A stretch of DNA of 64,000 nt from contig JAJYLT010000001.1 of NCBI GenBank assembly GCA_021787565.1, forward strand, positions 99,298-163,297. The letters are read 5' to 3'. The translations under genes were made by a program, and so were the position numbers. The notes below the pieces were generated by a model. It was given only the letters and a program-made list of their open reading frames with translations, had not been told where the DNA came from and did no database searches. Of this stretch, positions 46,591 through 56,282 are shown one piece after another. Origin of the DNA: Acidobacteriota bacterium. Its GTDB lineage: Bacteria > Acidobacteriota > UBA4820 > DSQY01. The first letter of the stretch is position 1. Every line of letters starts with the position of its first letter.

Positions 46591-46722
46591 ATGCCCTCAC
46601 GGCCGCCGCCGGCAAGCGGCTGTTACCTCCTCGCTCTTCCTGCATCTTTCATGAGTGGCAACCACCTCCCTCCTGCGTGGAGGCCGGCCTGCTTCCTGCA
46701 TCCCTCTTTCCTTCCCTATACG

Positions 46723-46750
46723 CCGGGGGCCCCGTGCCCCCGGTTTCCTT
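46723..46750 (+). terminator. Rho-independent terminator-like hairpin immediately upstream of the group II intron insertion point
   Basis: CCGGGGGC-cccgt-GCCCCCGG followed by tttcctttgtggtgt. Confidence 0.45.
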
Positions 46751-46757
46751 TGTGGTG

Positions 46758-47396
46758 TGCCGGGCATGTTGAGCAGCTTGGGGGTGAGAGTCCCCTACCC
46801 AACCTGATGGAGGTGAAGGGTTAGCGAAGCGCAAGGGCGTCACCGTGAGGTGGGGTCTGAAGGAAGCGTGGAGCAAAAGCGCGAGCCGATGAACAAGAAC
46901 CGGATATGAGGCGTGAGCGCCGGACGAGCGGGCCACTAACCGCGAAGTCCATATCCATCAAGGGCGCGGGGCGTAAATCCGGCGGTTGCGCGCTGAAGGC
47001 GGCTGAACTTACCCCGGGAGGCCTGCGCCGTGTCCCGGAATTGGGACTGAGGGTGCCGTGAGGAGCCTTGATCGCGGTGCAGGAGTCAGCAGAGGGCATA
47101 GTAGGGGAGTGGTTCCCCGAAGGCCCGGACGGTGGGAGAGGCAAGTAGGACGCGGTCATGCCGGATGCAGAGCGGCGGAAAATCCAGGGTGACCTGGCCT
47201 TCGAAGCGGTGCTGGAGGGTGAAGCCCGAAGGCATGTGGAGTGAAGGGCCGAAGCATCTGGCACGGGCATCGAAACCGAAAGCCCGGCGGGGACACCCAT
47301 GCGGGTGTGACCGCACAACTCACCGAACCGCCGTGTACGGACCCGTACGCACGGTGGTGTGACAGGGAAAGCCCGCGAGGGCCTACCTATGTCGAT
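46758..47396 (+). mobile_element. ORF-less group II intron derivative (~640 bp; 5' domains plus domain V/VI-like 3' end, no IEP); boundaries approximate
   Basis: About 95% identical to 47397-47890 over its first ~490 bp and to 49189-49261 over its last ~105 bp (..gaaccgccgtgtacggacccgtacgcacggtggtgtgacagggaaagcccgcgagggcctacctatgtcgat). GTGTG at 46755-46759 fits the GUGYG 5' consensus. Confidence 0.6.
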
Positions 47397-49261
47397 TGCC
47401 GGGCATGTTCAGCAGCTTGGGGGTGAAAGTCCCCTGCCCAACCTGATGGAGGTGAAGGGCTAGCGAAGCGCAAGGGCGTCACCGCGAGGTGGGGTCTGAA
47501 GGAAGCGTGGAGCAAACGCGCGAGCCGATGGACAAGAACCGGATAGGAGGCGTGAGCGCCGGACGAGCGGGCAAAGGACCGCAAAGTCCATATCCATCAA
47601 GGGCGCAGAGCGTAAATCCGGCGGTTGCGCGCTGAAGGCGGCTGGACTTACCCCGGGAGGCCTGCGTCGTGTCCCGGAATTGGGACTGAGGGTGCCGTGA
47701 GGAGCCTTGATCGCGGTGCAGGAGTCAGCAGAGGGCATAGTAGGGGAGTGGTTCCCCGAAGGCCCGAACGGTGGGAGAGGCAAGTAGGACGCGGTCATGC
47801 CGGATGCAGAGCGGCGGAAAATCCAGGGAGTGCTGGCCTTCGAGCCCGCGCTAGAGGGTGAAGCCCCGAGGCGCGTGGACGAAGGGGCCGAACCGTTTGC
47901 TGCGGGAAGCGAGCCCGAAAGCCCGGCAAACACCGAGCGTCTGATGGAGGAGGTGGCTGAAGCGGAGAACCTGAGGAAGGCATTGAAGCGGGTGATGGCG
48001 AACAAAGGGTGCGCGGGAGTGGACCGGATGAGTTGCCGGGAGCTTCCTGAATACCTGAAAGCCCATTGGCCGCGGATACGGGAAGAGCTGCTTGCGGGCC
48101 GGTACAAACCCCAGCCAGTGCTTCGGGTGAAGATACCGAAGCCGGACGGCGGAATGCGGGACCTGGGCATTCCAACGGTGCTGGACCGGTTCATACAACA
48201 GGCTTTGCTGCAAAGGCTGCAAGCTCTCTGGGACGGGACGTTTTCGGACTCCAGTTACGGTTTTCGCCCTCACCGCTCGGCGCACCAGGCCGTTGAACGC
48301 GCGCAAGGCTACATCCGGCAAGGATGCGGGATTGTCGTGGACATCGACTTGGAGAAGTTTTTCGACCGCGTAAACCATGACGACCTCATGAACGAGATTG
48401 CGAAGCGGGTCACGGACAAGCGGGTGCTCAAGCTGGTGCGGGGGTATTTGAACGCGGGAGTGCTGGAAGACGGCCTGGTCAAGCCGGTGGATGAGGGGAC
48501 GCCGCAAGGCGGGCCTCTATCGCCGCTTTTGTCGAACATCGTGCTGGACAAACTGGACAAGGAACTTGAGAAGCGCGGACACCGGTTCGTGCGCTATGCG
48601 GACGACTGCAATATCTACGTGCGAAGCGAGCGCGTGGGGCAGCGGGTGATGGAAAGCATCGGCCGTTTCATCGAGAAGAAGCTGCGGCTCAAGGTCAACA
48701 AGGATAAAAGCGCGGTGGGGAAACCAAAAGAGCGTAAGTTTCTGGGCTTCAGTTTCACGGGCGGGAAGGAGCCGAGGCGGCGGATTGCGCCGAAGGCCCT
48801 CTATCGCTTCCGGGCAAGAGTGCGGGAACTAACGCGGCGAACCAGGGGAGCAAGGCTGGAGCGGATCATCGAGGAACTGGCGAAGTACCTCCGAGGATGG
48901 CGGGCCTATTTCGGATTCTGCCAAACACCCTCGGTGCTGAAAGAGCAAGACGAATGGCTCCGGCGGCGGCTCAGAAGCCTCATCTGGAAACGATGGAAGC
49001 GCGGGCGCGTGAGATTCCGGGAACTCAGAGCACGGGGTGTTGGGAAGGACCTGGCGGCGCAAACCGCCGGAAGCTCCCATAGCCCCTGGCGCATCAGCCA
49101 CAGTCCGGCGCTTACCTGCGCCTTTCCCAACGCCTTCTTCAAACGCCTTGGCCTGCCTTCACTGGCGTGAAGTGTAAGCTCAACCCGTCGAACCGCCGTG
49201 TACGGACCCGTACGCACGGTGGTGTGACAGGGAAAGCCCGCGAGGGCCTACCTATGTCGAT
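47397..49261 (+). mobile_element. Group II intron (full copy with intron-encoded protein), inserted in tandem directly after the ORF-less copy; boundaries approximate
   Basis: Shares its 5' ~490 bp and 3' ~105 bp with 46758-47396. Domain IV carries an RT/maturase ORF. A domain V-like hairpin ccgtgtacgg-accc-gtacgcacgg lies near the 3' end, and both copies end ...ctacctatgtcgAT. Confidence 0.7.
47944..49170 (+). CDS. Group II intron-encoded reverse transcriptase/maturase (no endonuclease domain)
   Basis: MEEVAEAENLRKALKRVMANKGCAGVDRMSCRELPEYLKAHWPRIREELLAGRYKPQPVLRVKIPKPDGGMRDLGIPTVLDRFIQQALL... shows RT blocks 0-7, including FVRYADDCNIYV (the YADD catalytic motif). The maturase X domain follows. 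Confidence 0.85.
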   Translation: MEEVAEAENLRKALKRVMANKGCAGVDRMSCRELPEYLKAHWPRIREELLAGRYKPQPVLRVKIPKPDGGMRDLGIPTVLDRFIQQALLQRLQALWDGTFSDSSYGFRPHRSAHQAVERAQGYIRQGCGIVVDIDLEKFFDRVNHDDLMNEIAKRVTDKRVLKLVRGYLNAGVLEDGLVKPVDEGTPQGGPLSPLLSNIVLDKLDKELEKRGHRFVRYADDCNIYVRSERVGQRVMESIGRFIEKKLRLKVNKDKSAVGKPKERKFLGFSFTGGKEPRRRIAPKALYRFRARVRELTRRTRGARLERIIEELAKYLRGWRAYFGFCQTPSVLKEQDEWLRRRLRSLIWKRWKRGRVRFRELRARGVGKDLAAQTAGSSHSPWRISHSPALTCAFPNAFFKRLGLPSLA

Positions 49262-49366
49262 TCATCCGCCCGCGCCACCCACTCCGCCACGCGCACACCG
49301 CTACACGCACCCCGCCCACCCCGCCCGCGTTGCACCCGCGCCGCCGAACGGGTATTCTGGTCCCGT

Positions 49367-49443
<77 letters not shown>

Positions 49444-49447
49444 GGTT

Positions 49448-50575
49448 TCAGCCGCCCTCAGAATTTCCGATGTTAGTTTTTTGTGAGTGCCGGACCGCGA
49501 GAACGGCCACGGCGTCCATGAGCATCTTTGGGGCGAGGTGGGCATAGCGGAGGGTCGTCTCGAAGTCCCTGTGCCCCAAAAGCTCCCGCACAACGGCAAG
49601 GTCCGCGCCGGCCATGATCGCCCGGCTTGCGAACGTATGCCGCAAGTCGTGAAACCGAAAGTCCTCGATCTTCGCGGCCGTGATCGCCGCTCGCCACTGC
49701 CGGGAAAGGTTGGCCTGTGTGCCCCCGTCCCCATTGGGGAAGACGAGGGCGCCCGTATTGATAGGCCGGGGTAGTTCATGCAGGACCGAAAGGGCCACCT
49801 CGTTCAAGAAAACGTGACGGTCCTTTTTCCCCTTGGCCCGCGTCGCCGGGATCGTCGCCACGGCGTTCGGTAGGTCAACGTCGCGCCAGGTAAGGCCGAG
49901 AATCTCGCCCCGCCTCGTACCCGTATGCAGAGCGAAAAGCACGATGCGCCGAAGGTAGGGCGAGCACTTCTTGAGTAGACGCTCCTCCTCATCGTCAGTG
50001 AGGAACCGAACGCGGCGGGGGTCTTCGCGGAAGAGTTTCACCTTTGCGGCGGGGTTGCCGTCCACGAGGCCCCACTGGCCGGCCAGGGTGAAGAGCCGCT
50101 TGAGCCGGGCAAGGGAAATATCCACGCAGCGCTTACCGACCAGCCGGGGCGCGGCGCCCTCTTTCTCTCCTGCCTTGCTCTTGGTGTCCCGAGCCGCCTC
50201 CTTCATGCGTTCGATCTTGTACCGTTCCACGTCGCCGCCCGTGATCTTGTCCAGGGTTCGTCCCTTGAAGCAGGGTGAGGCCTTCCACGAGTCGGCAACC
50301 CACCGGTCCATCTTGAACGTGGAGGCGCGGCAGTTGGCTTCCGACCACTCCAGGAAGCGCTTAACGGCTTGCTCGAAGGACGTATGCACTTCCTTGCGGC
50401 GGTCCCGGAAGTGATCGTCTATGATCTGCCCGCGAACGCTTTGGAGCAACGCGCGGGCCTCGGTGCGGTTGCGGCAAATTTTCCGAACCCATCGGCCCTC
50501 GTACATCCACGAGGCCCGGCACCGGCCGTCCGGTAAGACCAGAATGCCTTTTTCGCGCCTCTGTTGGGTTGCCAC
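49448..50575 (-). CDS. int: Tyrosine-type site-specific integrase (phage integrase family)
   Basis: C-terminal catalytic region ...HTGTRRGEILGLTWRDV...FHDLRHTFASRAIMAGADLAVVRELLGHRDFETTLRYAHL (R..H.R..H..Y) and an N-terminal SAM-like domain. Confidence 0.85.
   Translation of the reverse strand: MATQQRREKGILVLPDGRCRASWMYEGRWVRKICRNRTEARALLQSVRGQIIDDHFRDRRKEVHTSFEQAVKRFLEWSEANCRASTFKMDRWVADSWKASPCFKGRTLDKITGGDVERYKIERMKEAARDTKSKAGEKEGAAPRLVGKRCVDISLARLKRLFTLAGQWGLVDGNPAAKVKLFREDPRRVRFLTDDEEERLLKKCSPYLRRIVLFALHTGTRRGEILGLTWRDVDLPNAVATIPATRAKGKKDRHVFLNEVALSVLHELPRPINTGALVFPNGDGGTQANLSRQWRAAITAAKIEDFRFHDLRHTFASRAIMAGADLAVVRELLGHRDFETTLRYAHLAPKMLMDAVAVLAVRHSQKTNIGNSEGG

Positions 50576-56233: not shown

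Positions 56234-56282
<49 letters not shown>

Follow-up and report, generated by a model that had tools for sequence, protein, structure and literature searches.

A class C group II intron without an open reading frame, very probably nested in the first nucleotides of a full-length relative behind a terminator-like hairpin

We analyzed a 64-kb stretch of DNA from an Acidobacteriota bacterium (contig JAJYLT010000001.1 of assembly GCA_021787565.1, hereafter the window), in which two copies of a group II intron lie head to tail, the first lacking an open reading frame (ORF) and the second encoding a protein with reverse transcriptase (RT) and maturase domains. They follow a terminator-like hairpin (46722-46744) that starts about 130 nt past the end (46590) of a gene for an IstB/DnaC-like ATPase and folds with a free energy of −20 kcal/mol (z score −3.4; none of the shuffled sequences folded equally well). 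Rfam models, an alignment of copy against copy, Pfam, and TIGRFAM were applied to the window. At default settings, the only group II intron matches in the window were two plus-strand pairs, to RF02001 (46839-47007, 133.8 bits; 47478-47646, 126.8 bits) and RF01998 (47047-47125 and 47686-47764, 53.1 bits each). An earlier note on this DNA, written from its letters, had named a check for domain V with Rfam models; RF00029, which covers domains V and VI, was found in both copies at a permissive threshold (47326-47396 and 49191-49261; 39.5 bits each, E 1.3e-5). Upon comparison with related introns, the two copies very probably form a class C twintron in the post-terminator intergenic DNA, in which the ORF-less intron (46755-47396, the inner intron) sits after nucleotide 3 of the full-length one (the outer intron).

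The copies are 93.6% identical over the 483 nt of their 5′ block (46745-47227 versus 47384-47866) and 95.8% identical over the 432 nt of domains I to IVa, close to the figure of about 95% that the earlier note had given for their 5′ parts, and their last 74 nt (47324-47397 versus 49189-49262) are 100% identical. Four of the 18 differences in domains I to IVa fall in the 5-nt loop of exon-binding site 1 (EBS1), suggesting that the main functional difference between the two ribozymes is target specificity. The contrast in coding content that had been described also stands: in the first copy, the ORF runs for its start codon and 28 codons into a stop, beyond which about 1.24 kb is deleted, whereas the second holds a 457-aa ORF for an RT/maturase without an endonuclease domain.

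Scanning genomes with the intron-encoded protein yielded 80 loci with 61-71% protein identity, mostly in Acidobacteriota metagenome-assembled genomes (MAGs), with some in Proteobacteria, Planctomycetota, and others. Homology to the window opens at GTGTGCC in nearly all of these loci and closes at ...CCTATGYCGAT. As the GTGTGCC start and the CGAT end are shared by about 70 relatives, copy 1 is delimited to 46755-47396 and copy 2 ends at 49261; copy 1 does open with GTGTG and both copies end in ...CCTATGTCGAT, as had been noted.

Covariation among about 70 related introns, aligned over domain I, served to place EBS1 and EBS3. In the variable loop at 46932-46939 (GC-NNNNN-A), nucleotides 3-5 are complementary, intron by intron, to the last three bases of the 5′ exon, and the pairing is longer in some introns (ATGAA/TTCAT in locus L045, GACGTA/TACGTC in L054, CATG/CATG in L027). 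This EBS1 core pairs at 3/3 positions in 42 of 50 unique single insertions and at 2/3 in the remaining eight; when exons were shuffled among loci (2000 shuffles), 8.1 ± 2.5 introns showed 3/3 pairing, with a maximum of 17. The EBS3 column (46976) has the highest mutual information with the first 3′-exon base (0.886 bit), as A-T in 35/35 and G-C in 27/28 cases. Most of the related introns are placed about 6-10 nt 3′ of a GC-rich hairpin with a T-tract; in the window, the outer and inner introns lie 7 and 10 nt from the hairpin stem, respectively. The copies thus sit a few bases past a terminator-like hairpin, as the earlier note had said, and we infer that both introns recognize this hairpin as the structural element of their target.

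Copy 2 opens with TGCCGGGC (TGCC) directly at 47397, without a GTG, so that the junction between the copies reads CGAT/TGCC (slashes mark boundaries or insertion points). The lack of a GUGYG at this junction had been called odd. The absence is real, and nesting explains it: the sequence before copy 1 reads ...CCTTT GTG/GTGTGCC, placing the GTG that copy 2 lacks at 46752-46754. The outer intron would then comprise 46752-46754 plus 47397-49261, flanking a complete inner intron with GTG on its left and TGCC... on its right, and both introns would have a 5′ GUGYG, the inner one as GTGTG at 46755 and the outer one as GTG joined to TG (47397-47398). The outer EBS1, AAAGG, pairs at 5/5 positions with CCTTT, a match that requires the intron to start at 46752, while the inner EBS1, CAC, pairs with the GTG and the inner EBS3 A pairs with T47397. 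We favor nesting because of these three observations together: the missing GTG just upstream of copy 1, the fit of the outer EBS1 to CCTTT, and the fit of the inner EBS1 and EBS3 to GTG/T. The features are listed in Table 1.

Table 1. Features of the putative twintron and its target site in the window
Feature	Position	Strand	Basis
Terminator-like GC-rich hairpin, 9 pairs, 5-nt loop, then TTCCTTT	46722-46744	+	folding
Predicted intron-binding site 1 (IBS1) of outer intron, CCTTT, last 5 nt of true 5′ exon	46747-46751	+	5/5 complementary to EBS1 47573-47577
GTG, predicted outer intron nt 1-3, split from remainder; also IBS1 of inner intron	46752-46754	+	pairing
Inner ORF-less class C intron, 642 nt, GTGTGCCGGGCATG to CCTATGTCGAT	46755-47396	+	Rfam, homology, covariation
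Inner intron AGGAA motif	46861-46865	+	sequence
Inner intron EBS1, CAC	46934-46936	+	covariation
Inner intron EBS3, A	46976	+	covariation
Inner intron ORF remnant, 28 codons	47158-47244	+	read from sequence
Inner intron domain V, CGC triad	47327-47358	+	RF00029 alignment, covariation
Inner intron domain VI, bulged A at 47389	47360-47394	+	covariation
T, predicted IBS3 of inner intron	47397	+	EBS3 covariation
Outer full-length class C intron body, nt 4 (TGCCGGGCATG...) to 3′ end (...CCTATGTCGAT)	47397-49261	+	Rfam, homology, pairing
Outer intron EBS1, AAAGG	47573-47577	+	covariation
Outer intron EBS3, A	47615	+	covariation
Intron-encoded protein, 457 aa, RT (YADD present), maturase (GIIM), and C-terminal region	47797-49170	+	Pfam, TIGRFAM
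Outer intron domain V	49192-49223	+	RF00029, covariation
Outer intron domain VI, bulged A at 49254	49225-49259	+	covariation
First 3′-exon nucleotide, T, predicted IBS3 of outer intron	49262	+	EBS3 covariation

Judged from their sequences, both copies are ordinary bacterial class C (IIC) group II introns, the class that the earlier note had assigned, because they combine a CGC triad, the class C boundary consensus, an RT and maturase protein without an endonuclease domain, and the GsI-IIC RT as the best relative of that protein. In the RF00029 alignment, GAGCCGUAU of the model is aligned to CCGCCGUGU, giving the CGC triad of domain V, and domain V lacks 4 nt of the model at its tip, which corresponds to a shortened distal stem. 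Domains V and VI show compensatory changes at 10 of 26 pairs among 23 relatives, with a bulged A 7 nt from the 3′ end. The intron ends GUGUGCCGGGCAUG... and ...CCUAUGUCGAU agree with the class C boundary consensus (5′ GUNYGCCNRGCAUGG, 3′ CCUACYCGAU; PMC4028801): the 5′ end GUGUGCCGGGCAUGU matches 14 of 15 consensus positions, and the 3′ end is near consensus with one extra nucleotide. IIC ribozymes are described as having a CGC rather than an AGC triad, a domain V distal stem shorter by 2 bp, an AGGAA motif, an EBS1-IBS1 pairing of 3-4 bp, an EBS3 but no EBS2, and splice sites 3-11 nt past a terminator stem-loop (Toor et al. 2006, PMC1702495). The EBS1-IBS1 pairings in the window are 5 bp for the outer and 3 bp for the inner intron, and both EBS3 pairs are A-T. 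Compared with the class C introns B.h.I1, O.i.I1, and GsI-IIC (PMC1702495; Zimmerly & Semper 2015, PMC4424553), the window introns have the same small ribozyme with its CGC triad, shortened domain V, and AGGAA motif, the same 3-5 bp EBS1-IBS1 and single EBS3-IBS3 pair, insertion 3-11 nt past a terminator stem-loop, a protein without an endonuclease domain, and boundaries near GUNYGCCNRGCAUGG and CCUACYCGAU. Each of the two is ordinary when taken alone; what is unusual is that one lies within the first nucleotides of the other.

For the intron-encoded protein, Pfam returned RVT_1 and GIIM only, and no endonuclease domain was detected by Pfam in its 457 aa. The match to the group II RT/maturase model TIGR04416 scores 411.8 bits, and one member of the 90% cluster of this protein carries the label 'Deltaproteobacteria bacterium' MAG. 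Among solved structures, its best relative is the GsI-IIC RT (6ar1, 480 bits), to which it aligns end to end, followed by 7uim (group II intron RT/maturase, 353 bits) and then the RT-domain chains 5hhj and 5hhl; LtrA and the 6me0 maturase RT are weaker matches at about 119 bits each. We take 7uim, 5hhj, and 5hhl to be class C maturases, LtrA to be a IIA protein, and 6me0 to be the maturase of a IIB intron. On these match scores to solved structures, the protein fits the class C lineage.

The pairings point to a two-step history. The full-length, RT-encoding intron would first have retrohomed 7 nt past the hairpin, with its EBS1 on CCTTT and its EBS3 A on the T now at 49262. A related ORF-less intron would then have recognized the same hairpin, 10 nt upstream, with EBS1 CAC on the resident's GTG and EBS3 A on the resident's T4, and inserted between resident nucleotides 3 and 4; its target in the nested model would be hairpin-TTCCTTTGTG/TGCC. 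Since class C introns recognize no more than the hairpin, 3-5 nt of the 5′ exon, and one 3′-exon base, a terminator site that is already occupied should still be open to insertion. Read-through of the terminator would yield a precursor holding both introns, and the protein of the outer intron should bind both RNAs, given that the beginning of domain IV is still present in the inner copy. Splicing of the inner intron would have to come first; it would rejoin GUG to UGCC (GUG^UGCCGGGC) and so restore the 5′ splice site that the outer intron needs for its own splicing. Each excised RNA, together with the protein, could home to hairpin-plus-IBS1 sites of its own specificity. Where EBS1 is CAC and EBS3 is A, such a site would be offered by every resident class C intron at its 5′ end.

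To find similar arrangements, metagenome contigs were scanned for the intron 3′ end followed within 0-5 nt by TGCCGRRCATG, which returned at least 120 contigs, about 50 of them with real family junctions by nhmmer. About 70 contigs with spacers such as GAGG, GATG, and GATGA showed no nhmmer similarity to the intron and were excluded from the counts. Nine of these that we inspected (L087, L089, L090, L091, L094, L099, L113, L116, and L156) carry a conserved non-intron-like sequence, mostly in human-gut metagenomes, and an Rfam scan of L090, L094, and L116 gave no match.

We define the offset of a junction as the 3′ end of the upstream element relative to the first nucleotide of the downstream intron. 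Counted over all fetched loci, as lower bounds that are biased by the search pattern, junctions occur at offset 0, the exact tandem (n = 19), +1 (n = 15), −1 (n = 11; one spacer base, usually T), +3 (n = 7, window and L002 included), +2 (n = 1, doubtful), and −2 (n = 1). Every visible upstream element at +3 (window, L088, L158, and L184) has EBS1 CAC and EBS3 A, and the triplet before it is gtg in the window, L088, and L158. At +1, all 7/7 junctions with a visible upstream element (L035 twice, L083, L145, L187, L202) have EBS1 CAA or CAG and EBS3 A in that element, which is preceded by g; the outer EBS1 could be read in six of these cases and pairs with the bases before the g at 3/3 positions in five and at 2/3 in one (L187). 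A resident GTGTG would offer a T at positions 2 and 4 to an incomer with EBS3 A, and the need to pair with the shifted 5′ exon would explain why EBS1 begins with C in every +1 and +3 invader. In L035, the arrangement G(GTACGCC... ORF-less ...CCCGAT)TGTGCC... occurs twice, with the full-length copy lacking G1 and a G preceding the ORF-less copy; the pairings there would fit a history in which every insertion took place next to the terminator, the newest element lying nearest to the hairpin.

The visible inner elements at +1 and +3 (n = 11) come from several intron lineages, and nine of them are ORF-less (620-700 nt); the other two are a partly deleted element of 1,115 nt in L184 and one of full-length size (1,746 nt) in L088. 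Upstream copies in the exact tandems are mostly full length, and most of these have an EBS3 A opposite G1, a mismatch. Taken together, the recurrence of +3, +1, and exact-tandem junctions suggests repeated homing to an already occupied terminator site.

We also considered a more far-reaching proposal, namely that ORF-less class C introns with a C-initial EBS1 (CAC, CAA, CAG) and EBS3 A are specialized hyperparasites of protein-encoding class C introns. Their homing target would be the near-invariant 5′ GUGUG of the resident, where they would insert behind G1 or G3, in each case with a T as the next base. This proposal is tentative, and we hold more doubt than confidence in it.

Exact head-to-tail tandems (CGAT/GTGTGCC) were seen in L013 (at 3960), in L015 (at 3954), and in about 17 metagenome contigs (e.g., L096, L104, L126, L183, and L200). 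For L013 and L015, we rejected insertion past the 3′ end of the resident, as EBS1 of the second copy mismatches ...CGAT; offset-0 tandems could possibly form by mismatch-tolerant re-homing or by RT template switching between intron RNAs. Separately, ORF-less class C introns beginning GTACGCCG(Y)GC (GUACGCC) are present in L035, L084, L120, L140, L158, L184, and L187. In a sampling that is biased toward junctions, different MAGs and metagenomes repeatedly show them at −1, +1, or +3 relative to full-length introns of the GTGTGCC type, and they may be a non-autonomous lineage associated with autonomous introns.

Several points weigh against the nested arrangement or limit what can be drawn from it. 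The RF00029 score is 0.5 bit under the Rfam gathering score of 40. The inner IBS1 is only 3 bp, a GTG before a T is not rare by chance, and in one of the four visible +3 cases (L184), the inner element is preceded by ttg rather than gtg. When the metagenome contigs were scanned for the deletion junction of the ORF-less copy, GTGACCGCACAACTCACCGAACC, there were 0 matches, which leaves mobility of this exact derivative undocumented beyond the window site. The order of splicing, the activity of both ribozymes, and trans-mobilization are deduced from sequence. Lastly, L001 (GCA_027328665.1, DAHWTV010000026.1, 1-3820) shares sequence with the window only from 47615 on and has different DNA upstream. 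It carries an identical protein gene and the downstream element, but the DNA that precedes intron position ~219 holds an 848-aa gene and ORFs resembling DUF4372 transposases. This locus could be a 5′-truncated intron beside an insertion sequence, a strain difference, or a mis-join in the repeat.

The alternative that survives best accepts the arrangement as real and holds that one or both ribozymes are inactive, the pair being neutral debris past a terminator. Selection for splicing would be weak at such a post-terminator intergenic location, 5′ hydrolysis may suffice for class C introns (PMC4748821), and the metagenome contig scan found no second copy of the ORF-less derivative. Decay of this kind is nevertheless hard to reconcile with domains V and VI that are 100% identical between the copies, Rfam scores that are nearly equal in both, an intact ORF aligning end to end with the GsI-IIC RT, and differences that cluster in EBS1 rather than being scattered over the catalytic core. 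We consider it unlikely, though by no means negligible.

A simple head-to-tail tandem would require that the ORF-less copy inserted first, at ...TTTGTG/T. The full-length copy would have followed, by insertion at the 3′ end of the ORF-less copy or by joining to it, and would have lost its first three nucleotides. Linear order without a spacer is what such a tandem predicts, exact tandems do occur in the relatives listed above, and re-homing to a tandem has been shown experimentally for a IIB1 intron (PMC12584367). However, the EBS1 of the full-length copy cannot be matched contiguously to ...TCGAT and pairs at 1/3 core positions, whereas none of the 50 single insertions falls below 2/3. Furthermore, the three missing nucleotides lie exactly upstream of copy 1, as does the one missing nucleotide in 7/7 visible +1 cases, and a CCTTT fully complementary to AAAGG directly precedes the GTG. 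We therefore regard a simple tandem as very improbable. The same pairings argue against two suggestions of the earlier note: insertion of the second copy at the 3′ end of the first is not supported, since AAAGG is not complementary to ...TCGAT, and a target recreated by the intron 3′ end is not what the outer EBS1 fits, its match lying upstream of both copies. An exact offset-0 tandem of the groEL IIB1 type was rejected for the window, where the CGAT/TGCC junction lacks GTG; exact tandems are found in relatives only.

The least credible alternative is a mis-join of copies from different loci or strains in a metagenome-assembled contig: the source does appear to be a MAG or metagenome contig, repeats often break or mis-join assemblies, and L001 diverges within the repeated region, but the CGAT/TGCC junction lies outside the shared sequence and would not be made by a repeat-mediated mis-join, it is found with 100% identity in another metagenome contig (L002, ENA ERZ27233565), the same junction type occurs in unrelated intron lineages and samples, and the EBS1/IBS1 and EBS3/IBS3 pairings are internally consistent. 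A circularly permuted group II RNA was also weighed, since domains V and VI directly precede domain I at the junction. In such RNAs, domains V-VI stand before domains I-III in one RNA with no intron-encoded protein in or near it (PMC8637638); we rejected this possibility because each copy is complete and in normal domain order, with an intact protein gene.

The nested arrangement can be compared with three known systems. In the Thermosynechococcus elongatus TeI3/TeI4 twintrons, the protein of the outer intron was shown to splice and mobilize both introns (Mohr et al. 2010, PMC2882425); the ORF-less lineage there arose by internal ORF deletion with its termini retained, and the authors proposed evolution toward targeting a conserved site in another intron. 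As in the window, an ORF-less intron formed by internal ORF deletion lies inside a related ORF-containing one, with the TeI introns keeping both N- and C-terminal remnants. Unlike the window pair, which is IIC with a hairpin plus GTG/T as its target, the TeI introns are IIB/CL, have long EBS/IBS targets, and are inserted in domain IV between two ATGs of the ORF. In the window, the insertion would split the outer 5′ GUGUG and leave the outer intron without a 5′ splice site for as long as the inner one stays in place.

Tandem re-homing of the EcKTE56.groEL IIB1 intron (PMC12584367) resembles our model in that the occupied site is still a target, 5′-exon recognition is unchanged, and the 5′ nucleotides of the resident become the new 3′ exon at a position set by EBS3 pairing. 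It differs in having offset 0, an EBS3 U-G1 wobble, and experimental support, whereas the window shows offset +3, a predicted EBS3 A-T4 pair, and nesting read from sequence comparison. The nested arrays of Methanosarcina acetivorans (PMC4424553) likewise involve repeated homing into group II introns in non-coding DNA, a perpetual homing site, although those introns reportedly home into the ORFs of their relatives (Dai & Zimmerly 2003), not into the first nucleotides of an intron past a terminator.

Class C introns after terminators, ORF-less derivatives, bacterial twintrons, intron-into-intron homing, and re-homing to an occupied site are all already known (PMC4424553, PMC2882425, PMC12584367). 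What is apparently new here is the putative insertion into the 5′ GUGUG of the outer intron. In the literature searched, which did not include several key class C papers, so that an earlier mention is possible, we found no description of nesting between class C introns at the very 5′ nucleotides of the outer one, nor of the −1/0/+1/+3 offset pattern.

In practical terms, the nested reading corrects the anatomy of the locus, as pipelines expecting a GUGYG for each copy would call the full-length intron 5′-truncated. It also suggests that ORF-less class C introns recurrently lie within the first nucleotides of an autonomous relative, a habit that has apparently not been described, and these natural sequences indicate that the class C target rules (a hairpin, an IBS1 of 3-5 nt, and one IBS3 base) predict where a second intron lands: at −1, +1, or +3, in every case with a pyrimidine next. 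Should splicing of the inner intron have to come first, the pair would offer a natural system in which to study how the smallest group II introns order their splicing and share a protein. Should the hyperparasite proposal be true, the invader would ride on the same transcript as the RT it depends on and make host splicing conditional on its own removal. The wider significance is modest, since every component mechanism is already known.

Within the comparison set, a subgroup of Acidobacteriota MAG introns (L051-L055, L061, L068, L070, L072, L073, L077, L078, L080, and L082) has a conserved 5′ flank, roughly cgtccgccgcNNNNgcggcttcgtt, in place of the varied terminators seen elsewhere. This flank is matched by their EBS1 (AACG, GACG, or AACT), and it may be a repeated palindromic element serving as a homing site. 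In L054, L055, and L057, the match to domains I-III (intron 5′ part, ~120-650) lies about 1.9 kb upstream of the ORF (at 2501) instead of about 400 nt, suggesting that something is inserted between domain III and the ORF.

Some 100 nt away from the putative twintron, a 49-bp stretch at 49397-49445, which covers the 3′ part of a tRNA-Pro(UGG) gene (49367-49443), is repeated exactly at 56234-56282, about 6.8 kb downstream. Between the repeats lie genes for a tyrosine integrase, an HTH_17 protein, and a DnaB-like helicase along with small ORFs (49448-50575 on the minus strand and onward), and the region resembles a small element that integrated at the tRNA gene, with att sites derived from it.

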